Virus record (IMG/VR): IMGVR_UViG_3300005573_000052
Strand: one strand, 5' to 3'
Length of the DNA: 64,000 nucleotides
Source: a virus
The translations under genes and the position numbers were made by a program. Positions 32,729 through 46,478 of the stretch are shown piece after piece. The notes under the pieces were generated by a model. It had not been told where the DNA came from, did no database searches, and saw nothing but the letters and a program-made list of their open reading frames with translations. Each line of letters starts with the position of its first letter. The stretch's first letter is position 1.

Positions 32729-32736
32729 GATACACC
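32729..32736 (-). promoter_or_regulatory. Late promoter variant GGTGTATC
   Basis: Abuts the stop codon of the tandem LAGLIDADG gene. Confidence 0.65.
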
Positions 32737-34538
32737 TAGGGCGACGTGGTTTGTGGGGAGGAAGAGATGGGTTCGGTGTAAGTAGTTGGGGATGACCCGT
32801 TTAGGATAGACGTAAAAAAGGATTCGGGGGGCCAGATGTCAGTTCGCGCCTTCCAAAAGTCAACAATAGCCAAAATGGCAGGATTGTCCCATTTGCGGGA
32901 CAGGTTGGGAGTGGGGAGGCGGCGGAGGAGGGTGAAGAGGACGGCGGCTTGGAGACCACGGACCGTGAAGTAGTAGCAGGTTTCGTCATCACCTTGGCGG
33001 ACAAGGGATTCGCGCCCTCGATCAATACGGGGGAGATTGAGGTCGTCTATCGCGCGCTTGATGCCAGCGATTATCTCGCGGTTCACCCCGCAGACCATAA
33101 TGGTCATGGAGCCGGGCTGGTTGGAGCGGGTGACACAGCCGTCGCCGTCAATGAAGCCGCGAAGGAAGCTGAGTTTGGAAATGATGTCGGGGAAGGTGGG
33201 AAGCTCGCAACGAAGAGTCTTGTTGACCGTGATGTTGAAATTGCGTTCTAGGTCAGCGTGCCATTCGGTGGCGCTCTCGATGGAAATACGGCACTGAGGA
33301 GTGGGACCGGCCTTAGCTCCCGGAAGATTGCATTCGGCCATGAAGTTGACAATGGGCTGTTCTAACTTGGTCTCAGCCTTGAACCACTCAAGCAGACACC
33401 GGTCTTTTTCGGCTACTGACCAGCGAACAGCCTTGGAATTCCGGTTGATAAACAGACACCCATCAGTGCAAATCAGGCCCGCCCAGTAAGATGTGCGCGG
33501 GGTGATGGTGGAGAAAAAGGAGCGGTCGTAGTCATACTTGGGGTAGCTGCCGTATTCGCGGGTGCGAAGGGCGGTCATCGACTCAATGTGAGCTATTGCG
33601 CTCGTCAGCCCAAATGTTGCGGCGATTTCGGGTAACGGGTGGGTTTCGCGTAGGGCAGACAGGGCAATTGGGGATACGTTGGCTGACTCGACCATTTCCA
33701 CATAGCGGCGCAACTTGCTCCATTTGCGTTCCAAACGGATGATGTCAAGTGACAGGAATATCTTGGCCAGCCAATAGACCTTGGCTCCGCCCACCGAGTA
33801 ATTGAAGGTGCTGTCGGCCTCCTTGAAGCGCACGATTGCCGCGTCGGACTCGGGCGCCCATTGGTCAAAATGGGCCTTGACCCAAGTAAGCATCGTCTCC
33901 TTCCCGCCCAGCGAAATGTTATACTTGGTTGTGTCGGTTTCGGACACATATTCGACAATCCATCCGTTGCCGTCAATCAGTCCCGAGATGAACGCGGCGA
34001 CGAGGCGCGGGTCTGAGATATTGGGTGGACGCAGGGTCTCGGTCTTGCGCGGAAAGATATTCCAGTGCTCGCCGAGCTTGGCACAGATTTCCCCGCCGGT
34101 TATCTGCATTCGGGACAGCGAGTAGGTCTTCTTGTTACCGTCAGCGTCGGGCTTTACGAACTCGTCAAACGCGTGGTTCTCGGAGTCAAGGATGTTGGCT
34201 GTGGAGTCAAGTGCGGCGCGCACTGCCTCAAGATGAGCCCGGTCCTTGCTGGACATGTTGAAGACGAGGCGGGGCTCTCCAGACGTGACACTGCCGTTTC
34301 CTGCGATGAACCCGGCTACAGCGCAGTTTTGCTCGGTCGGAGTGTCAAAGTAGTGCCGGTTGTGGACGGGCAGCACCTTGATGGCTATTTCCAGCTTCTG
34401 CGCCCGAGAGCGGATGGAGTCGTAAGTGCGCCCCGGGAGAAATGCCATCACCTCTCTGATGGTCTTGCAGGTGGCGAATTTTTCGCGGAGGAGGGCGTCT
34501 TCGGTGGAAGACCAAGGGGTAGAGACAGAGATAGACAT
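32736..34538 (-). CDS. Tandem (four-motif) LAGLIDADG endonuclease with N-terminal Myb-like HTH
   Basis: VAGFIAGNG, ISGLIDGNG, WAGLICTDG, LRGFIDGDG; WSSTEDALLRE. Confidence 0.82.
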   Translation of the reverse strand: MSISVSTPWSSTEDALLREKFATCKTIREVMAFLPGRTYDSIRSRAQKLEIAIKVLPVHNRHYFDTPTEQNCAVAGFIAGNGSVTSGEPRLVFNMSSKDRAHLEAVRAALDSTANILDSENHAFDEFVKPDADGNKKTYSLSRMQITGGEICAKLGEHWNIFPRKTETLRPPNISDPRLVAAFISGLIDGNGWIVEYVSETDTTKYNISLGGKETMLTWVKAHFDQWAPESDAAIVRFKEADSTFNYSVGGAKVYWLAKIFLSLDIIRLERKWSKLRRYVEMVESANVSPIALSALRETHPLPEIAATFGLTSAIAHIESMTALRTREYGSYPKYDYDRSFFSTITPRTSYWAGLICTDGCLFINRNSKAVRWSVAEKDRCLLEWFKAETKLEQPIVNFMAECNLPGAKAGPTPQCRISIESATEWHADLERNFNITVNKTLRCELPTFPDIISKLSFLRGFIDGDGCVTRSNQPGSMTIMVCGVNREIIAGIKRAIDDLNLPRIDRGRESLVRQGDDETCYYFTVRGLQAAVLFTLLRRLPTPNLSRKWDNPAILAIVDFWKARTDIWPPESFFTSILNGSSPTTYTEPISSSPQTTSP

Positions 34539-35945: not shown

Positions 35946-36569
35946 TTAGAGTTCCAGCTTGAGCTGGGCATAACCACCGAAAGCGGAACCGGAGTAGCTG
36001 AGCCACTTGCCGACGATTTGGGAGCCAGTGTAGGTGTAGCCGCCAGTAGCGAGCTGACCAGCGATGGCTCCGGCGGGATTGACCGCCTCGACCTTGCCCG
36101 CGCCGCCCGTCGAAACCACGGCGACGTAGCCCGGGAAGGGCGTGCCGATGATCTGGCTGAGCTTGAGGGTCACAATGCCGCGCGACAGAATCGGGGTGGC
36201 GAAACCGGTCTGGACAAAGCCACGGTCGAGGGTCTTGTCATAGGGCTGGTTGGCCAGCAAGTTGCCGTTTTCATCGGTAAGAGCCGTGGTATGCAGGGTG
36301 ATGCCGAGAGTGTTGTAGCGGGTGTCGCCAGCCTGCGTCGGGCGAACACGACGGGGCGTGTTGTAGCGATAGGAGGTGACGTTGGTGAAAGCCGCAGCGA
36401 CCGCTTGGGTCGTGTATTGGCCAGCGGACAGAGCAGGGTCCTGATTGCCGGTCTGGAGAGCGACCAGTTGGCCGTTCAGACCCGTGCCATCAAGAGCATA
36501 CCAGTTGATCACTTCAGCCGGGTCATATTGGCGGAAGGGGAGGAGATTGCCATCAGTGAGGATACTCAT
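35946..36569 (-). CDS. Head decoration/cement protein
   Basis: Position between scaffold and MCP; beta-tulip-like TPILSRGIVTL..G. Confidence 0.6.
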   Translation of the reverse strand: MSILTDGNLLPFRQYDPAEVINWYALDGTGLNGQLVALQTGNQDPALSAGQYTTQAVAAAFTNVTSYRYNTPRRVRPTQAGDTRYNTLGITLHTTALTDENGNLLANQPYDKTLDRGFVQTGFATPILSRGIVTLKLSQIIGTPFPGYVAVVSTGGAGKVEAVNPAGAIAGQLATGGYTYTGSQIVGKWLSYSGSAFGGYAQLKLEL

Positions 36570-36651: not shown

Positions 36652-39243
36652 TTAACGCGTTTTGCGGGTGGACTTTTTGGCGGCTTCGGCGAGGTCGGCG
36701 ACCTTGGTGCCACCGATGGAGGCGACTTGAGCGAAGGCTTCCATGTATTTGTCCTTCAGGCTTTGACCGCGAGCGGCGTCGCCGAGGTCATTGACCACGG
36801 GAGCATCAGTCGGATTGGCTTGGGCAGAAGCGAGAGCCTGTTGAGCAGCAGCCTTGCAAGCTTTGTCATCAGCGTCATCATCCGGCTCCTTGTCGTTCTT
36901 CTTATCGCCGAGCTTTTCACCGCCCTTGTCGGGGAAAGCGGCCTTGGACCAGCCCTTATAGAGCTTCTTGGCGCGGGCAAGCCACTTGGCGAACGCGGCG
37001 TCATCGGCGCAGGCCTTGATCTCGTCAATCACTTCGGCGCGAGTCTCGTCGTCAAAGGCGAAATTCGCCTCGACCGTGGCCATGCGCTCGTTGAACTGGG
37101 CCTCGGCGGCAGCGGCCTGCTGCGCGGCGACAGCCTCGTCATGGGATTTCTTGAGAGCAGCAAACTGGCGCTGCATGTCTTCAAGGGCGGCTTGTGTGGT
37201 GGCCTGAGCGGCAACGGCGTCGGCGCGCTCCTTGGCGAACTTCTCGCTGGCCTTGGCGATTTCCTCGGTAAAGAGGGCTACGTTAGCCATGGCGGTAGGA
37301 AGCTCTTCCACGGTTTTGACAGACGCAATGGTCTGCTTGATGTCATCGAGATTCATGGTAGGTGATACGGTGGGGTTGGGAGTGGAAACTGATACACCTG
37401 CGGTGGCGGTGTTTGTGAGAGTCGGCATGAGAGCGCGCCCGGCGGCGGAGGCAAAAATGGCGGCGAGACGGGCGAAAACGTCATCCAGCGCGGCCTTGAT
37501 GGCATTGTCCGTGTAAGGCGCGTTGCGACCCTTGTCGTTCAGTGCGTTGTTGGCATCCTGCTTCAGCGCGGCCTCGGGGCGCACGGTCGGATATTGGTCG
37601 CCGATGCGAGGGTGAACGAGCTTGGTGTCGTCAGTTTGTGGCGGCATACCGGGCGTCATGGAGGTGATGGTGACATGCGGGGGCATGGCCAGCTCTTTTT
37701 CCAGTTGTAGCGTCGCGCCGTCGAAAATCTTGACATTGGTTAGCTTGGTGCCGTCCGACAGCGTAACATCCACGCCGTTGACCAGCGGCGCGCTTCCGTT
37801 GTTGGGCAATTGGATGTTGGCGAGGGCATTCTGCCACTCGGGGGTAAGCTTGAGGAAACAGGAGGAAGTCGTGGACATAGGAATGTCGGCTGTGGGGGTA
37901 TACACCTGCTCGGCAGAGGTTTGACGGAGAGGGATTTCCACCGGGTCGCCGGTATGGGGGCGGAACGAGAGGGAATTGAAGGTCATGGCGTGGCCCATAA
38001 ACCGCTTGTCGCCAACGTATTGCGCGGCGCGGCCCTTCTTGGTATAGCACAGGGTTAGGTGGGGTTGAAAATCGAGCCACGCATAGTCGTTATCCGTGGA
38101 GGTGCGAAGTAGGTGATGGAGGGTGTGGATGTCCTGTCCCTCGACCGTGACCTTGAGGACATCATAAGGGGCATCGTCGCGCTCGAAAGCGGAAACTTCG
38201 CCCATCGTGATGGTAGCCGGACCCATGTCAGCCAGTGCGGTTTGGATAGGCGCGGCATCGGCGGTTTTGATGCCGTATAGCACGGTGGCATGGCTTTCCG
38301 TCTCCCGCCCATATTTGCCCGCCCCCTCGCCCTCCCCATAATACAAATCGTCCTCCGGGATACTCGCCGCAAACTCCAGATAGCGCGCCGCGTCGGCGGA
38401 CGAGAGAGTGAACTGAGTGGAACTGCGACTATAAAGCCCGGCATCCAGCACGTCGGCCAACGGGTGGACGAAATTGGGGTTGGACAGCACTGGAGCAATG
38501 CCCTTGACGGCTGCGGCGGGCACCGCGACAATCCCGGCCCCGAGCGGCACAATCTCGCCCCTCAGCACCCGCGCGACACGCTCGCCAGTCGATGCAATCG
38601 CCCCCTTGCCGCCATTGCACCTGAGGGTCTTGTCCCACTTCTCCCAGTCGCCGGAATCGGGTGTGATGAGTTTGGTCGCCAGAGCTAAGTCCGACTTCCC
38701 CTTGGGCAGCACGACCACATCGTAGTCATCGAACCCGACCTCGAATGACAGGGACAGCCTGCCCTTGTCGCGCGAACCGGGCGCGGCGGACTGGATGATG
38801 AAATTGCACAGGTCCTTGTCGGCGACCTTCCAGATGGCCATGGCGATGGCGATGTTGCATGGCTTGTTGGCTTCCCTCGCCTCGTCCACGGTGAGTAAGC
38901 GGTCGGTACCGATTTCGGACAGCCCAGCCTTGACGATGTAGCCCACAATCACGCCACGGTTGTGTTCGATATCGACCAGTTGGCCCTCGAACTTGGGGTA
39001 GACTCGGAGAGTGTCTTCGAGACTGACTGCGTCATCATTGAGGTTACAGACTCCGCCTACTGCCAGATTGCCAACGACATACAAAATGGTCGGATGATCC
39101 TCCGGGTTGATAGAGGAGGGAAGCAGCCCCTTCAGTCGGTCAATCGACGCGCAAATCTCGTTTCGCTCTGCATCGGAGGGCGGGTGATAGTGGCCGACTG
39201 CCTCGAAGCGGGCCTTGTATTTGGGCGTGTAGAACTCGGGCAT
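36652..39243 (-). CDS. Prohead protease - 2H phosphoesterase (Acb1-like) - scaffold polyprotein
   Basis: N-terminal DIEHNRG / LSFEVGF protease-like motifs; HATV (H318) and HLTL (H395); C-terminal Ala-rich coiled coil; between portal and MCP. Confidence 0.75.
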   Translation of the reverse strand: MPEFYTPKYKARFEAVGHYHPPSDAERNEICASIDRLKGLLPSSINPEDHPTILYVVGNLAVGGVCNLNDDAVSLEDTLRVYPKFEGQLVDIEHNRGVIVGYIVKAGLSEIGTDRLLTVDEAREANKPCNIAIAMAIWKVADKDLCNFIIQSAAPGSRDKGRLSLSFEVGFDDYDVVVLPKGKSDLALATKLITPDSGDWEKWDKTLRCNGGKGAIASTGERVARVLRGEIVPLGAGIVAVPAAAVKGIAPVLSNPNFVHPLADVLDAGLYSRSSTQFTLSSADAARYLEFAASIPEDDLYYGEGEGAGKYGRETESHATVLYGIKTADAAPIQTALADMGPATITMGEVSAFERDDAPYDVLKVTVEGQDIHTLHHLLRTSTDNDYAWLDFQPHLTLCYTKKGRAAQYVGDKRFMGHAMTFNSLSFRPHTGDPVEIPLRQTSAEQVYTPTADIPMSTTSSCFLKLTPEWQNALANIQLPNNGSAPLVNGVDVTLSDGTKLTNVKIFDGATLQLEKELAMPPHVTITSMTPGMPPQTDDTKLVHPRIGDQYPTVRPEAALKQDANNALNDKGRNAPYTDNAIKAALDDVFARLAAIFASAAGRALMPTLTNTATAGVSVSTPNPTVSPTMNLDDIKQTIASVKTVEELPTAMANVALFTEEIAKASEKFAKERADAVAAQATTQAALEDMQRQFAALKKSHDEAVAAQQAAAAEAQFNERMATVEANFAFDDETRAEVIDEIKACADDAAFAKWLARAKKLYKGWSKAAFPDKGGEKLGDKKNDKEPDDDADDKACKAAAQQALASAQANPTDAPVVNDLGDAARGQSLKDKYMEAFAQVASIGGTKVADLAEAAKKSTRKTR
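37391..37398 (-). promoter_or_regulatory. Internal late promoter variant GGTGTATC before in-frame ATG 37356
   Basis: Motif 35 nt upstream of M630 (MNLDDIK, scaffold start). Confidence 0.5.
37899..37906 (-). promoter_or_regulatory. Internal late promoter GGTGTATA before in-frame ATG 37878
   Basis: Motif 21 nt upstream of M456, just after the 2H domain. Confidence 0.55.
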
Positions 39244-39276: not shown

Positions 39277-39284
39277 TATACACC
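39277..39284 (-). promoter_or_regulatory. Late promoter GGTGTATA
   Basis: Intergenic, upstream of the protease polyprotein. Confidence 0.75.
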
Positions 39285-41479: not shown

Positions 41480-42229
41480 TTAGATTTGGTAGTCGCTAAT
41501 CCACAAATCGTCGCCCTTTAATTGGTTGTGTTTCTGCCACATCGGAAAGAGATTACTCCAATGAAAGCATTGTTTTTGCTGTTCTGGATCGGTCAAATCA
41601 AAGTAAGTGCAGGGAAAGTAGTGATCTATGTTCCACTTGTCGGGTCCAAACCCGTAGTTGTCCCACGTCATCCCGTTTTCAAAATTTTTTTCTAGCCACT
41701 GTTTGAAAAAATCAACGGTGCAGCCTAACAAATCCAACGTCGAAGCACTTTTCTTTTTGCGTCTCAACGCGCAGGAAAGCCTTCCTCGAAGCCTATTAGT
41801 AATTTTATACTGAATGTCGGTTTTTTCTCGTTCTTTTCTTCTCTTGCGATTGTTGGCATTAATTTCTTTTCTTCGACTCTTTTGGTATGCAGCCAATTTT
41901 TCTTTGTGGCGAAAATCGTAACTAGTCTTATTTTCTTTCACAAAGGCCCTCGCTTCTTCTCTTGTTCGGTTTTCCTTTCTAGCTTTTCGTTTCAATTCAG
42001 AAGAGTGCCCCTTGTAATATAACTGGGTGGCTGCGTAATACTCTCTGTTTTCTTCTCGCCATTTATAGACATTAGCCTTGACTCGTTCCCAATTCTTTTT
42101 CCTGTATTCCTTATTTTTGACCCGACTACACGCCCGACAAATAAACTTATAACCACTCTTGGTATACTTATCTTTGACAAAGTCTACCAATGGCTTCTCT
42201 GTCTTGCAGCAATAACACGTCTGATTCAT
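41480..42229 (-). CDS. HNH-type homing endonuclease with N-terminal CxxC..CxxC
   Basis: WNIDHYFPC...HWSNLFPMWQKHNQLKG; AT-rich; ATGA overlap with TerL. Confidence 0.75.
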   Translation of the reverse strand: MNQTCYCCKTEKPLVDFVKDKYTKSGYKFICRACSRVKNKEYRKKNWERVKANVYKWREENREYYAATQLYYKGHSSELKRKARKENRTREEARAFVKENKTSYDFRHKEKLAAYQKSRRKEINANNRKRRKEREKTDIQYKITNRLRGRLSCALRRKKKSASTLDLLGCTVDFFKQWLEKNFENGMTWDNYGFGPDKWNIDHYFPCTYFDLTDPEQQKQCFHWSNLFPMWQKHNQLKGDDLWISDYQI

Positions 42230-45200
42230 CGTAGAGCAAGCATCACAGGTATAAATTCGTCAACCTCGGGAGAAGGTAACTCTTGGGAAGCCAAATAAAT
42301 TTTTAGAGCCCAATTTGCAAGCCAGAGAGCACTGTAACTATCGCGCCGATTACGCTGGACATTCTTCCGGTTCTTGGTCATGTGGCTGGGCAGGTCGAAA
42401 CTGATATGGCCCAGTGCCGTGCTGCTCACTTCAATCAGCGCACACTCTTTCTTGGTCTGTTCCATGAGCACGTCCTGATGGTTGACGAACTCATAGGCAT
42501 TTCCCATCCCCTCCACGTCCTCGTCGTGAAAGGCGGGGTGGGTTTGATGAATCGACCCAATATCATAGCCCGCCAACTCGGCAGTCTTACCCACAGAGGC
42601 CGCGTGAGAAGCGAAGATAATGGCCCGTTCATTAAGACAGGCACGAAGATAATCGTTGCCCGCCTTGATGATGGATGTGCTAAAATACTGCTTCTGCACG
42701 ATGCGCTTGACACTGCTGTCTCGGTTGTAGGACTTGGCGACCTGACCGACAATGGTCTCAAAGTCGGCCCCGGCGAAATCTGCATCAATGGCGTTCAATT
42801 CCAACTTGGCCTGCTTGAACACCTCCGACTCATTGCATGCACTGATGAAGTCGCCTTGGTCACCGTGGGACGTATCGCAAATGAGATAGACGATGTTGAA
42901 ATGGGTCAGGATGAACATCAGATAGGCCATGTGGTGCTTCAAACCCACTCCGGCGCAGGCGTATTGGTGGACGACCATGCCTACCTTGCGCCCGTCTCTC
43001 GCGCGCGCCACCACCTTCATCACACACATGGCGAAATGGTCGCCCGCTGGATCGGAACTCATTGACGGGTCAATGGCGAGGATGTACTCTGCGCCCTTTT
43101 CGCCCGTCACCTCGATGCAAGGTAATTGCCCCGGAGCCACACTGCACTCGTGAATTTCCTTGGCACTGAAGAAGCCACCAGATTCGTCAATGAACTGTGC
43201 CTCATATTCGCGTTTGATGACAGATTCTGGGATACGCTTTTCGCGGATTTCTTGCAGAATACCCGCGTCCATCAGGTCGGGATTGCCAACTTTGTAGGAT
43301 AATTGGTGGACAAGGTACGTTGCTGCGCCAGCGTCTGTTTCCTCTGCCTTGGCTGCCCCTTCGATGTCACTCTTCTCGATGATAGCTCGATACTGTTTAT
43401 ACATCGAGTACAGCTCTTCCCACTTGTAGGATGCCGAAGACAGCACAATCATCTTGGAATCGGCCTTGAATACGGTCTTGTCCTTTTCCTGCATCTTGCC
43501 CGCCTCGATAAGCCGTGCCTCGCGACGACGCAAGAGCTGCTTTTTGGTCGGGTCTGCGCCGCCCGCGAGGAAGGGCTTGAGCACCATGTTGATGGTGTGG
43601 TGGGAGATAAGGAGACCTTCGTCAATGCCGAGCAGGTTGCACCGGAAGCCGCGTAAGTTATCAGGGTCGCCCAAGGGGACGGCGGTGATAGACGAGCCAT
43701 TCTTGAACACGATTTTGATGAGGTCCTGTCGCTTGATCATGTCGCGCTCAAAGGTCTGGCGGAGCAGGGCACCTTTGGTCTTGGGATTGGCCCATTCGTC
43801 AATGCGCTCCACAATCTGGCGACTGGAACGGAAAGTTGCGGCGCAGATTAGGATGTGGTGGCCCGGATTGAGGAGGCAGTAAAGGTAGCAAAAGTGGGAA
43901 AAAACTGTGGAGTTGTGATTGACGAATCCTCCGCTCCAATAACACTCCTCCTTATCGACCTGAATATCAATCGTTTCCGTCTCGGTCGGGGAGATAACAC
44001 GGATTGAGTCGAAATAGCACTGAGAGTCAAGAATCGCTCGAATCTTAGCCTTGTCTGTCTCGTCAACGAAGGGGCAATCCAAAAATTCGGCCAAACGGGC
44101 AGTGGAAATCCAATCCAAAATTCGTAGGTCGTAAGCGCGCCTGAAGGCTTGTCCATACTTGGCCCGAAAATACGGACCGACCCTTAGCATGTTGTGCTTG
44201 TAGGCTGAATTGGTCGGCTTGGACAGATAAAGGTCGAGCTTGGCCTGCTTGCGTTTAATCCCAAACCCAATCTCTCGGCTGAAGATTTCAAGACTTCGGC
44301 GGTCAAATATATCAATGGCCCACGCGTTGTGGGTTTGATAGTCTTTGCCGTTGGAGAAGCGATGGGTCCCAGCTACATGTTTTTGGGTGACCGAGGCGAG
44401 AATCCCGTAGTTGAGAAGGATGGAATGGACCTTGTCAATGATATCGCGAGACGAGCTACCCAGCTCGATTTCACACCGATTGGTCTTGGGATTGAGAGTG
44501 CAACTCCCATCCGTATCAAAAAGGCCGCGCAAAAAGGCGGACACCTTTGGTTTGCTAACCGATAGGATTTTTGCTGGAACCGTCTTTTGATAGGCTAACT
44601 CACTGTCGAAGCCCATGTAACGAAGGAAGGCCTTAAAGCGGACGCTGCAAAACATGTAATCCTTGGCCGCGCTGTCTTTGACTTTGACTGAGACCTTGGT
44701 GTTCGGCAGGTGGTCTCGAATCATGGTATAGACAGAATCAACCACCTCTTGGTCCATTGAGCTTACCCCGACAGTTCCTCCCTGTTGGCGCATCGTTCCG
44801 TCCCCAAGGATGACTCCCATTACGTAATAGAGGTTCAGGTCCTCATCCAGAACCATAGGGTGAGAGGGATGCCCGGGTTTGGTTCCTCGGTCCGGCTGGA
44901 AATAGTTGGCGATAGGGGTCTCATTTCCCCAATGGTCCATACCGCGACGGATTGGGATGATTTCATTGCCCTTCAAGGTCTCAATGTTTTGCCACGTAAA
45001 CTCCAAGGATGACGAGTCAAATACCCAAACCTTATGTCCGACCTTTCCGGTGCAGATATACCCACGGTTTGTCGTGACAGTGAATCCCGGTTCCTTGGGG
45101 TTCTCGACCTTAGCTAGCACCGTCTGGGGAGACCGGTTAGCCCAAATACGTTCGCCAACCTTGACTTGGTGGATTTCCTTAAATCCCTCGTCGGTAAGCA

Positions 45201-45474
45201 CTAAGGAGTTCCGGTCGATGCATTTACCAAAGCTACGTCCTGCGACCGTGAGGGAAAAGTTCTTCTGCATCCACCCCTTGACCACGATGCGCTGATAGGG
45301 CTCCAACAGCTTGCCGGTGAGCAGCCAGACCAGCACGCCAAGGTTGTGCATGAGGAACTTGCCCAAGGTGCGGCGCGCCACGTCCTCGGACAGTTCACCC
45401 TCCAGCTTGAGGAACTCGGCGTTCCAGTCGGTCTGGTCAGCCGTGGTCTTGGTCTTGTCTCCGGCAATCCACAT
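42226..45474 (-). CDS. terL: Terminase large subunit with intein
   Basis: GRSFGK|S Walker A, LRGFRCNLLGIDE Walker B, EYEAQF, ILAIDP RNase H nuclease, RRDSYSAL. Confidence 0.9.
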   Translation of the reverse strand: MWIAGDKTKTTADQTDWNAEFLKLEGELSEDVARRTLGKFLMHNLGVLVWLLTGKLLEPYQRIVVKGWMQKNFSLTVAGRSFGKCIDRNSLVLTDEGFKEIHQVKVGERIWANRSPQTVLAKVENPKEPGFTVTTNRGYICTGKVGHKVWVFDSSSLEFTWQNIETLKGNEIIPIRRGMDHWGNETPIANYFQPDRGTKPGHPSHPMVLDEDLNLYYVMGVILGDGTMRQQGGTVGVSSMDQEVVDSVYTMIRDHLPNTKVSVKVKDSAAKDYMFCSVRFKAFLRYMGFDSELAYQKTVPAKILSVSKPKVSAFLRGLFDTDGSCTLNPKTNRCEIELGSSSRDIIDKVHSILLNYGILASVTQKHVAGTHRFSNGKDYQTHNAWAIDIFDRRSLEIFSREIGFGIKRKQAKLDLYLSKPTNSAYKHNMLRVGPYFRAKYGQAFRRAYDLRILDWISTARLAEFLDCPFVDETDKAKIRAILDSQCYFDSIRVISPTETETIDIQVDKEECYWSGGFVNHNSTVFSHFCYLYCLLNPGHHILICAATFRSSRQIVERIDEWANPKTKGALLRQTFERDMIKRQDLIKIVFKNGSSITAVPLGDPDNLRGFRCNLLGIDEGLLISHHTINMVLKPFLAGGADPTKKQLLRRREARLIEAGKMQEKDKTVFKADSKMIVLSSASYKWEELYSMYKQYRAIIEKSDIEGAAKAEETDAGAATYLVHQLSYKVGNPDLMDAGILQEIREKRIPESVIKREYEAQFIDESGGFFSAKEIHECSVAPGQLPCIEVTGEKGAEYILAIDPSMSSDPAGDHFAMCVMKVVARARDGRKVGMVVHQYACAGVGLKHHMAYLMFILTHFNIVYLICDTSHGDQGDFISACNESEVFKQAKLELNAIDADFAGADFETIVGQVAKSYNRDSSVKRIVQKQYFSTSIIKAGNDYLRACLNERAIIFASHAASVGKTAELAGYDIGSIHQTHPAFHDEDVEGMGNAYEFVNHQDVLMEQTKKECALIEVSSTALGHISFDLPSHMTKNRKNVQRNRRDSYSALWLANWALKIYLASQELPSPEVDEFIPVMLALR
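43912..45222 (-). mobile_element. Intein (437 aa) with LAGLIDADG homing endonuclease
   Basis: N-terminal CIDRNSLVLT, C-terminal GFVNHN followed by Ser; MGVILGDG and LRGLFDTDG motifs. Confidence 0.92.
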
Positions 45475-46478
45475 CAGAGAAGGCCCCGCTCGTGGAGGTG
45501 TTGGAGGTCTACGCGGCGAACCTGTTCGCCCATCTGAAACAGGCGGACGACAGTCTGGGCCATCTCGATTCGGCCATTCAGAAACAGGACTTGGAAATGG
45601 AGAGGGTGACGGGTGAGCAGCTCGCGCAGGTTGTGGAAGACATAGGCGGGGCTGGCTTTGACCCATTGGGTCTGGGGCAGTTGGTCAAACCGTTGGGCAT
45701 CAATGATGTCGGCTTCAACTACCATGATGACATAGAGGTTCTGTTCCCGGGCGCGGGCCAGTTCGCGGTCGAACCGGTCAAACGCGCAATCCTCGGTCCG
45801 CCCGGTGCCCTTGCGTCCACCCTTGCGCTCCACCTTGCGTCCGCTGAGGGTGCCACAGAAATCGCCAAGGCTCTTGCGCTCGATGCGGATACCCAAATCG
45901 TGTGGCGCGGCCAGTGCGTAATCGCCCACTTTCAGGGTCTCGTTGCGGGTCGGGATGGACAGATGAAGGGGGGCCTGTTCACGGGTGTCGCTGATGACCA
46001 CCGCGTCTTTGGTTAGGGCCGGATGAAACACGGGCAGTTCGTCGTAATAGCGCGGCGCGAATCCAAGAGCCTCGGTAATACCGTAATACCCACCCTCGCT
46101 GACTCCAACGGTATCGTAGTAAGGCATGGACGGACAGGTTAACGTCCGTAACTCCACTTGCGACGGCGCATAAACCAACCCCTTGCTCTCCTTGCGCTTC
46201 ATCAACCACTCCTTGGCCCAAGCCAGCCCTTCGGCGCGGTGTTTGGTCAGCCATTCCCTCAGGGTCTCCTTGGACACGAAGTCCTGAGAAAAATACTGAT
46301 CTACGTCGGTGAATGGAATCAGTTCGCCGTTGACCCGGTCCTTGCGCGGGTGATAGGTATGGAAAAACTTGGCTCGGGCGACCCGAAACCGCTTCAGGTG
46401 GGCGTAGAGCGACGCCAAATCGGGGTGGACGGTCTGGTCGAAGGGGCAGGTATAGGGGAAGGTGAGGGCGGAGGCCAT
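45474..46478 (-). CDS. ERCC4/XPF-domain nuclease with N-terminal zinc-finger-like segment
   Basis: ISDTREQ, GDYAL, IERKSLGDFCGT, IMVVE; TGATG overlap with TerL. Confidence 0.82.
   Translation of the reverse strand: MASALTFPYTCPFDQTVHPDLASLYAHLKRFRVARAKFFHTYHPRKDRVNGELIPFTDVDQYFSQDFVSKETLREWLTKHRAEGLAWAKEWLMKRKESKGLVYAPSQVELRTLTCPSMPYYDTVGVSEGGYYGITEALGFAPRYYDELPVFHPALTKDAVVISDTREQAPLHLSIPTRNETLKVGDYALAAPHDLGIRIERKSLGDFCGTLSGRKVERKGGRKGTGRTEDCAFDRFDRELARAREQNLYVIMVVEADIIDAQRFDQLPQTQWVKASPAYVFHNLRELLTRHPLHFQVLFLNGRIEMAQTVVRLFQMGEQVRRVDLQHLHERGLL

Follow-up and report, generated by a model that had tools for sequence, protein, structure and literature searches.

In phage T4, the internal proteins and Alt are targeted to the capsid, processed by the prohead protease gp21, and injected with the DNA, where they counter host defense, and portal C-termini, MuF, and polyvalent proteins are likewise capsid-interior components that are ejected with the DNA. 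Fusions of a protease with a scaffold whose expression is nested occur in herpesvirus UL26/UL26.5, lambda C/Nu3, and Mu I/Z, and among these classical systems, which we take together with the T4 gp21 protease, to our knowledge none carries an enzymatic cargo domain between the protease and the scaffold. A head-associated, signal-degrading 2H phosphoesterase was already predicted in 2017, when Iyer, Burroughs, Anand, de Souza, and Aravind (J Bacteriol, PMC5512222) described 2H domains in polyvalent proteins, in solo phage genes, and in MuF/portal fusions and proposed that these phage domains are RNases or degraders of host-defense nucleotide signals; that paper describes no protease or scaffold carrier, the word “prohead” occurring in its reference list only and “scaffold” nowhere. 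Our literature searches for a 2H domain or its antidefense relative Acb1 fused to a prohead protease or scaffold likewise found no description. Here, we analyze an 863-residue protein encoded on the minus strand of IMG/VR virus record IMGVR_UViG_3300005573_000052, of which a stretch of 64,000 nucleotides (the window) was studied. This protein shares the layout of the classical systems, with a domain of prohead protease fold first and a scaffold-like tail last, and what is specific to it is the gp21/assemblin-fold carrier, the internal position of a 2H domain, and the presence/absence polymorphism of that domain. We consider the case about evenly balanced that this head-assembly polyprotein delivers the 2H domain as capsid cargo against immune nucleotides, a proposal in which we infer the packaging, cleavage, retention, injection, and substrate.

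The analysis of sequence profiles and a structural model shows that amino acids (aa) 270-440 form a genuine 2H phosphoesterase domain with intact active-site residues. A preliminary description of this DNA had pointed to two HxT motifs 77 residues apart at 37935-38430, corresponding to aa 272-437, and had read them as a 2H phosphoesterase signature. Both motifs are present as quoted, with ETESHATVLYG containing H318 (codon 38290-38292) and DFQPHLTLCY containing H395 (codon 38059-38061), and the signature is borne out by the predicted structure, by its Foldseek and VIA-align comparisons, and by a catalytic tetrad that does not vary among relatives. Specifically, H318, T320, H395, and T397 are invariant across an alignment of 35 full-length relatives that are 42-56% identical (A1), and in a second alignment of the window's domain with 25 stand-alone homologues of 145-255 aa (A2, 26 rows) no variation is seen at the two histidines, the second threonine, or Y400, and the first threonine is conserved to at least 90%. 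Given this conservation of four catalytic residues over such divergence, together with the repeated absence of the 2H domain from close relatives that still make heads, it is very unlikely that a domesticated 2H fold serves as a non-catalytic spacer or structural module in the prohead core, a role for which its position between two assembly domains would be suitable and which finds no further support.

These observations were complemented by an AlphaFold2 model of aa 257-440 built on A2, which reached a mean predicted local distance difference test (pLDDT) score of 92 and a predicted template modeling score of 0.85, and for which nearly all of the matches listed in a Foldseek search of the PDB (E ≤ 0.0016) were 2H enzymes or 2H-like domains, as were nearly all of the leading VIA-align matches. 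Sub-threshold Pfam matches to 2_5_RNA_ligase2 (7.7e-5) and Acb1 (3.2e-4) fall on aa 315-409, PHROG 755 “RNA ligase” matches the 863-residue protein at 1.3e-7, and all 26 rows of A2 match both PF13563 and PF23474, with best E-values of 3e-15 and 1e-9; on its own, the window's domain scores 25.4 bits on PF13563, under the cut-off of 27. Moreover, an exhaustive HMMER search with aa 257-440 recovered 3822 cluster representatives at E ≤ 1e-3; when short homologues of aa 258-440 were sought by a word-indexed search, none came up, which reflects a limit of its sensitivity, since the exhaustive search found so many.

In the capsid-cargo proposal, the scaffold tail and the protease would bring the protein into the prohead core, where the 2H domain would become cargo of the capsid interior. 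On firing, the protease would probably cut the linkers that flank the 2H domain, and the enzyme, a folded unit of 20 kDa, would remain inside the head and exit together with the DNA at the next infection, in the manner of T4 internal and polyvalent proteins. In the new cell, the enzyme would hydrolyze a 2'-OH-dependent phosphodiester target, the likeliest targets being host immune nucleotides, that is, the cyclic oligonucleotides of CBASS (antiphage signaling based on cyclic oligonucleotides) or of type III clustered regularly interspaced short palindromic repeats (CRISPR) systems, or 2'-5'-linked signals. The route that we infer (prohead core, protease trimming, retention, and ejection) would be the same as that of the T4 internal proteins and Alt, whereas the T4 internal proteins are separate proteins with a short capsid-targeting peptide and the cargo here lies covalently within the protease-scaffold. 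As a separate observation, the acb1 gene of phage T4 (57B; L004:3592-4411) directly adjoins ipI, which encodes one of the internal head proteins that are injected; this may be coincidence.

The capsid-cargo proposal is supported, comparatively, because the same 2H clade is repeatedly fused to head-interior proteins and a protease-scaffold reaches the same compartment. Among the 142 top HMMER representatives outside the whole-protein relatives, there are 68 proteins of more than 2000 aa and 25 of at most 260 aa. The window's domain matches polyvalent giants of 2000-6000 aa at E-values of 1e-42 to 1e-22 and 35-50% identity, and two of the three giants scanned carry polyvalent-protein domains (Kinase-PolyVal, or LPD38 with a Strawberry-notch-type helicase). 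The mid-size members of the clade include proteins that combine a Mu-type portal, 2H, and LPD3, as well as lambda-type portals with a C-terminal 2H domain. The fusions described in 2017 by Iyer et al. belong to the same sequence clade and follow the same logic of an enzyme placed on a capsid-interior protein; in contrast to them, the carrier here is a protease of gp21/assemblin fold with a scaffold, and the 2H domain is internal rather than a terminal module of a MuF protein, a portal, or a giant.

Several points weigh against the proposed capsid cargo and its immune substrate. Segments linked to a scaffold are often broken down and expelled instead of being retained. In the clade members P0068 and P0097, the 2H domain is fused to a LigD_N 3'-phosphoesterase, an ATP-dependent ligase (DNA_ligase_A_M), and DUF192, a composition more in keeping with the end repair of nucleic acids than with the degradation of signals. 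For the Acb1 family PF23474, the score stays under the cut-off of 27 bits (24.2 for the window's domain alone and 20.9 for the whole protein). The hhalign match between A2 and 14 T4-type Acb1 proteins (97.3% probability, E 2.8e-11, 79 columns) spans Acb1 columns 40-119 only, a core bounded by the two HxT motifs. The nucleobase clamp and lid of Acb1 involve Y12, W74, F107, E141, and, in the C-terminal lid, W147 (Hobbs et al. 2022, PMC9117128), and the cyclic-dinucleotide-clamping regions around Y12 and E141/W147 have no aligned counterpart in the window's domain by hhalign. Finally, in structure the domain resembles LigT-type RNA 2',3'-cyclic phosphodiesterases no less than Acb1: VIA-align Z-scores were 15.5 for the Deinococcus cyclic phosphodiesterase (CPDase), 14.6 for E. 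coli LigT, about 14 for Usb1, and 12.6 for Acb1 (134/137 residues aligned), with the LigT/CPDase superpositions at Z 14.5-15.5 covering 149-155 residues at a root mean square deviation of 2.4-2.9 Å and 13-16% identity, and with Acb1, LigT, and Usb1 all within Z 11.7-15.5 on a score that scales with chain length, so that the ranking cannot separate them. Structural comparison with Acb1 and LigT thus returned a clear 2H fold, and it did not decide between these families.

When the A2 profile was run against all PDB sequences, Acb1 proteins led (9Q2G at 4.4e-7 and Acb1 of phage FBB1 at 3e-5), followed by LigT-like chains at 1e-3 to 0.09, and the hhalign alignment sets both HxT motifs of the window's domain on the Acb1 catalytic tetrad of H44, T46, H113, and T115. 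W389 stands six positions before H395, and an aromatic residue occupies the same place in Acb1. Against single sequences, hhalign gave 37.8 for T4 Acb1 (77%, E 2e-5) and 35.8 for E. coli ThpR/LigT (66%, E 5.6e-5). In BFVD, the viral models nearest to the window's domain are other phage 2H proteins, with TM values up to 0.80 and 33% identity, that carry the labels “2'-5' RNA ligase superfamily” or “cyclic phosphodiesterase-like”; models annotated as Acb1 come after other phage 2H groups, the first of them at rank 30. Acb1 itself (T4 gp57B; Erwinia phage FBB1, PDB 7T26/7T27; PF23474) shares with the window's domain the 2H fold, the HxT/HxT tetrad, and a second motif of the form aromatic-x-P-H-x-T-L-x-Y; it differs as a free cytoplasmic protein of about 150 aa, whereas the domain of about 170 aa is embedded in a head protein. 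LigT/ThpR enzymes (E. coli ThpR, 5LDI-5LDQ; Deinococcus CPDase, 5H7E; Thermus TT0787, 1IUH) have a two-lobed 2H domain of similar size and, unlike the window's domain, are cellular housekeeping enzymes not fused to virion proteins. The preliminary description had called the domain Acb1-like, which is upheld for the 2H superfamily and for homology of the core and falls short of family membership, with a score under the Pfam Acb1 cut-off and a position about equidistant from Acb1 and LigT/ThpR. On these sequence comparisons, the domain appears to represent a separate phage 2H clade that is homologous to Acb1 and not a member of it.

The same data bear on an RNA-directed enzyme, which would be either a LigT/ThpR-like 2',3'-cyclic phosphodiesterase repairing the RNA ends left by anticodon nucleases or toxins of the host or, alternatively, a Usb1-like RNase directed at host RNA once delivered. 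This alternative is unlikely and yet retains real weight, given that the top structural Z-scores go to CPDase/LigT and Usb1 above Acb1 (though Acb1 is smaller), that PF02834 (LigT_PEase) matches 20 of the 26 A2 rows (the window's own domain not being among the rows listed), that the closest viral models carry cyclic phosphodiesterase or 2'-5' RNA ligase labels, that the clade is fused to the LigD_N, ligase, and DUF192 domains noted above, and that an RNase role was one of the two options of Iyer et al. It is countered by the neighborhood and the profiles: no RNA ligase or kinase gene was seen beside the 863-residue gene, no second 2H copy was found within the 64-kb window, the phage 2H clade was never seen with RNA ligases by Iyer et al. 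(2017), and Acb1 proteins outrank LigT-type chains by sequence profile among solved structures.

The carrier was examined through its N-terminal 256 residues, for which structural modeling confirms a gp21/assemblin fold (MEROPS S77/S21). The AlphaFold2 model of aa 1-266 (pLDDT 87) was compared by VIA-align with 48,161 representative PDB chains, and T4 gp21 (5jbl) was the best match at Z 10.2 over 144/165 residues, followed by the varicella-zoster virus protease (Z 8.5) and the human cytomegalovirus protease (Z 6.9); these were the sole three chains with Z ≥ 5, unrelated chains reaching at most 4.8. The best Foldseek rows for the same model were also herpesvirus proteases and gp21, all of them weak (E > 0.001), and aa 1-256 gave no match to the curated family models of Pfam, PHROG, and NCBIfam. 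Residues E93, H94, R96, S166, F167, and E168 are invariant in 43 sequences, and the 72-residue spacing of H94 and S166 is consistent with a Ser/His protease, their equivalence to the catalytic pair of gp21 being only presumed. In the herpes enzymes the catalytic His-Ser spacing is similar, at about 69 residues. The placement of the 2H domain between a protease-like N-terminus and a scaffold, as given in the preliminary description, therefore stands on the modeled fold at one end and on a helical tail read as scaffold at the other.

A protease of this fold allows another explanation, in which the 2H domain would act as a trigger-coupled antidote in the producing cell and, attached or just released, would, late in that infection, destroy the cyclic-nucleotide signals raised when the prohead protease activates CD-NTases (cGAS/DncV-like nucleotidyltransferases), with no need for injection. 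T4 gp21 cleaves the activation loop of a CD-NTase and so switches on CBASS (Hobbs & Kranzusch 2026, bioRxiv 10.64898/2026.03.04.709575), CBASS-escape mutations occur in prohead protease genes (Richmond-Buccola et al. 2023), and here a gp21-fold domain is part of the same protein. Moreover, the gene lies among head genes and has the GGTGTAT motif of other structural-gene starts, read as a late promoter, so that the trigger and the enzyme would be made at the same time. A late gene of its own would serve equally well, however, and the portal and polyvalent-virion-protein fusions in the same clade are better explained by packaging. We regard this antidote role as somewhat unlikely on its own, and it is compatible with capsid delivery. 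A joint version, in which a protease trigger is welded in cis to its own quencher and the freed enzyme is also injected to pre-empt signaling in the next cell, is decidedly improbable on present evidence.

The comparison of related proteins reveals that the 2H segment is an accessory insert. A survey of the insertion in related protease genes yielded 34 full-length homologues with the 2H domain and 13 related proteins without it. The 34 proteins, from independent samples in NCBI, JGI, ENA, and Logan, have the same continuous protease-2H-tail architecture, in agreement with the preliminary description's treatment of the locus as one gene rather than two. With this recurrence and a confident fold model, and with nothing found in its favor, an assembly or frameshift artifact joining two genes, or a chance pair of HxT motifs, has next to no probability. 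By BLASTP, the 13 related proteins (552-746 aa) match aa 1 to about 256 and then resume at aa ~438, skipping the 2H segment (~257-437). In a maximum-likelihood tree built from the protease domain, four 2H-less proteins fall inside a well-supported 2H-bearing clade, with P0022 (with 2H) and P0038 (without 2H) as sisters (support 97/83); the tree requires four label changes of 2H presence, at least two of which are forced by well-supported branches. Since relatives without the 2H domain keep the protease and the tail, and since the tree forces at least two gains or losses, the 2H module is accessory and not needed for head assembly.

The surroundings of the insert vary as well. The linkers on both sides of the 2H domain differ greatly in length, four homologues (P0006, P0011, P0013, and P0016) have an extra DUF6582 domain after the equivalent of aa ~585 in the inter-domain region, and P0009 carries, in the linker that precedes the 2H domain, a Cys-rich insertion resembling a zinc ribbon (CPECG...C..H). 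Because the linkers are variable, DUF6582 occurs as an additional insert, and the 2H domain is dispensable, the stretch that separates protease from scaffold behaves like a cargo slot. Within an uncultured clade of phages of 180-220 kb, the 2H insert is a polymorphism, some members having it and others lacking it. In a related phage known from two Logan contigs (L001, 181,218 bases; L002, 181,220 bases; the window's own contig has 181,217 bases), the protease-scaffold protein P0035 has 671 aa, lacks the 2H insert, and is only about 56% identical to the window's protein; no 2H copy was found within 8 kb of its gene.

Short conserved elements within these variable linkers suggest how the polyprotein might be processed and expressed. 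A [D/E]-A-G-[L/M] motif recurs directly ahead of the 2H domain despite the strong variation of the linker in length and sequence, which makes this acidic-Ala-Gly motif a possible protease processing site; a cleavage consensus common to it and the capsid protein was sought, and none was established. The C-terminal 234 residues contain 24% Ala, 11% Lys, 10% Asp, and 8% Glu and are conserved in relatives both with and without the 2H insert, and it is from position and composition that this Ala/Lys/Glu-rich, putatively helical tail is read as scaffold. The motif GGTGTAT lies just upstream of the 863-residue gene, the portal gene, the 207-aa gene, and a homing-endonuclease gene (all minus strand), its sites in the window other than those of Table 1 being 36611, 41456, 34596, 32730, and 31810, and two copies lie within the 863-residue gene itself ahead of in-frame methionines. 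V447-Y448, V617-S618, and M630 are nearly invariant although they lie inside hypervariable linkers, and in the 51%-identical homologue on contig L003, GGTGTAT (L003:9260) precedes the methionine equivalent to Met456 by 11 nucleotides. The conserved VY after the 2H domain had been considered as a cleavage or docking motif; this was rejected, the encoding DNA motif GGTGTAT accounting better for its conservation. The internal sites suggest internal promoters or starts yielding separate, scaffold-only products, as in lambda C/Nu3 and herpesvirus UL26/UL26.5 and comparable with Mu I/Z. With scaffold-only products made from internal starts, the full-length protein bearing the 2H domain would therefore be a minor species.

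The neighboring genes are those of a head-morphogenesis region. The preliminary description had placed the gene between portal and capsid, which is accurate for the portal-like gene directly upstream and incomplete on the other side, where the 207-aa gene intervenes before the capsid gene. The order of terminase, portal, protease-2H gene, a gene of about 200 aa, and a 391-aa gene is also found in L003, a 219-kb JGI contig. The probable capsid protein of 391 aa had no match in Pfam, PHROG, or the phage database, an NCBIfam search of four head genes gave zero matches, and phmmer of the whole 863-residue protein against PDB sequences returned just a chance match to an ABC-transporter binding protein (E 0.47). 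A tblastn search of 50,697 phage records gave a single match, which is confined to the 2H part and lies in an uncultured phage of 595 kb; because of this 2H-only match and the absence of any match to the capsid protein, no cultured relative is available.

Elements resembling selfish DNA were also observed among the head genes. An intein that includes a LAGLIDADG homing endonuclease apparently interrupts the terminase large subunit (1146 aa, 42226-45666, minus strand; about 655 aa in relatives), as indicated by Pfam LAGLIDADG_3 (2e-16) on aa 375-467, by a match to Terminase_6N that does not start before aa 586, and by a weak one to Intein_splicing. A 600-aa double LAGLIDADG protein (32736-34538, minus strand) is encoded just downstream of the capsid gene, and a 249-aa protein between terminase and portal (41480-42229, minus strand) is HNH-like by eye, with no Pfam match.

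Table 1. Coordinates of the 863-residue gene, its parts, and its neighbors in the window, with the basis of each assignment.
Feature	Position	Strand	Basis
Head-morphogenesis gene, 863 aa: protease, 2H, small domain, scaffold-like tail	36652..39243	-	Single uninterrupted open reading frame; 34 full-length homologues, 42-56% identity, same architecture
Prohead protease domain, T4 gp21/herpesvirus assemblin fold, aa 1-256	38476..39243	-	AlphaFold2 model, VIA-align, Foldseek; invariant His94, Ser166
Linker before 2H domain, aa 257-269, variable length, ending in conserved acidic-Ala-Gly motif	38437..38475	-	Alignment columns
2H phosphoesterase domain, accessory insert, aa 270-440	37924..38436	-	Pfam/PHROG matches, conservation, AlphaFold2 model, Foldseek, VIA-align
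First HxT motif, H318-A-T320	38284..38292	-	Invariant in A1; in A2, H invariant and T ≥90% conserved
Second HxT motif, H395-L-T397	38053..38061	-	Invariant in A1 and A2
Internal GGTGTAT, 21 nt before in-frame Met456, encoding nearly invariant V447-Y448	37900..37906	-	
Small conserved domain, aa 456-~560, from in-frame Met456 (KLSxGWQ...LSDGR...MTPG)	37564..37878	-	Conserved block in A1
Internal GGTGTAT, ~35 nt before in-frame Met630, encoding nearly invariant V617-S618	37392..37398	-	
Ala/Lys/Asp/Glu-rich tail, aa 630-863, from nearly invariant Met630	36655..37356	-	Composition, conservation
GGTGTAT, candidate late promoter, ~28 nt upstream of the gene's ATG	39278..39284	-	Motif recurrence
Upstream neighbor, portal-like protein, 706 aa	39290..41410	-	Weak matches: Pfam Phage_portal E 0.073, PHROG 2739 portal 7.6e-4
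207-aa gene, between 863-aa gene and capsid gene	35946-36569	-	
Downstream, probable major capsid protein, 391 aa	34721..35896	-	ESM Atlas look-alikes: Mu GpT-like/HK97-fold capsid clusters, score 0.98, TM 0.65-0.87

The value of this locus lies in its specific architecture and its testability rather than in a new principle, the general idea having been put forward in 2017 (Iyer et al., PMC5512222). The natural presence and absence of the 2H domain in otherwise similar proteins, together with the variable slot, offers a ready-made experimental comparison and also points to a principle by which the loading of phage heads with enzymes could be designed. Should the capsid carry the enzyme, and should the enzyme degrade immune nucleotides, it could provide counter-defense against CBASS or type III CRISPR from the moment of DNA entry, before phage gene expression, and, if true, this would be the first case of one polypeptide uniting a gp21-type head protease, the known trigger of CBASS, with a candidate destroyer of the signal.

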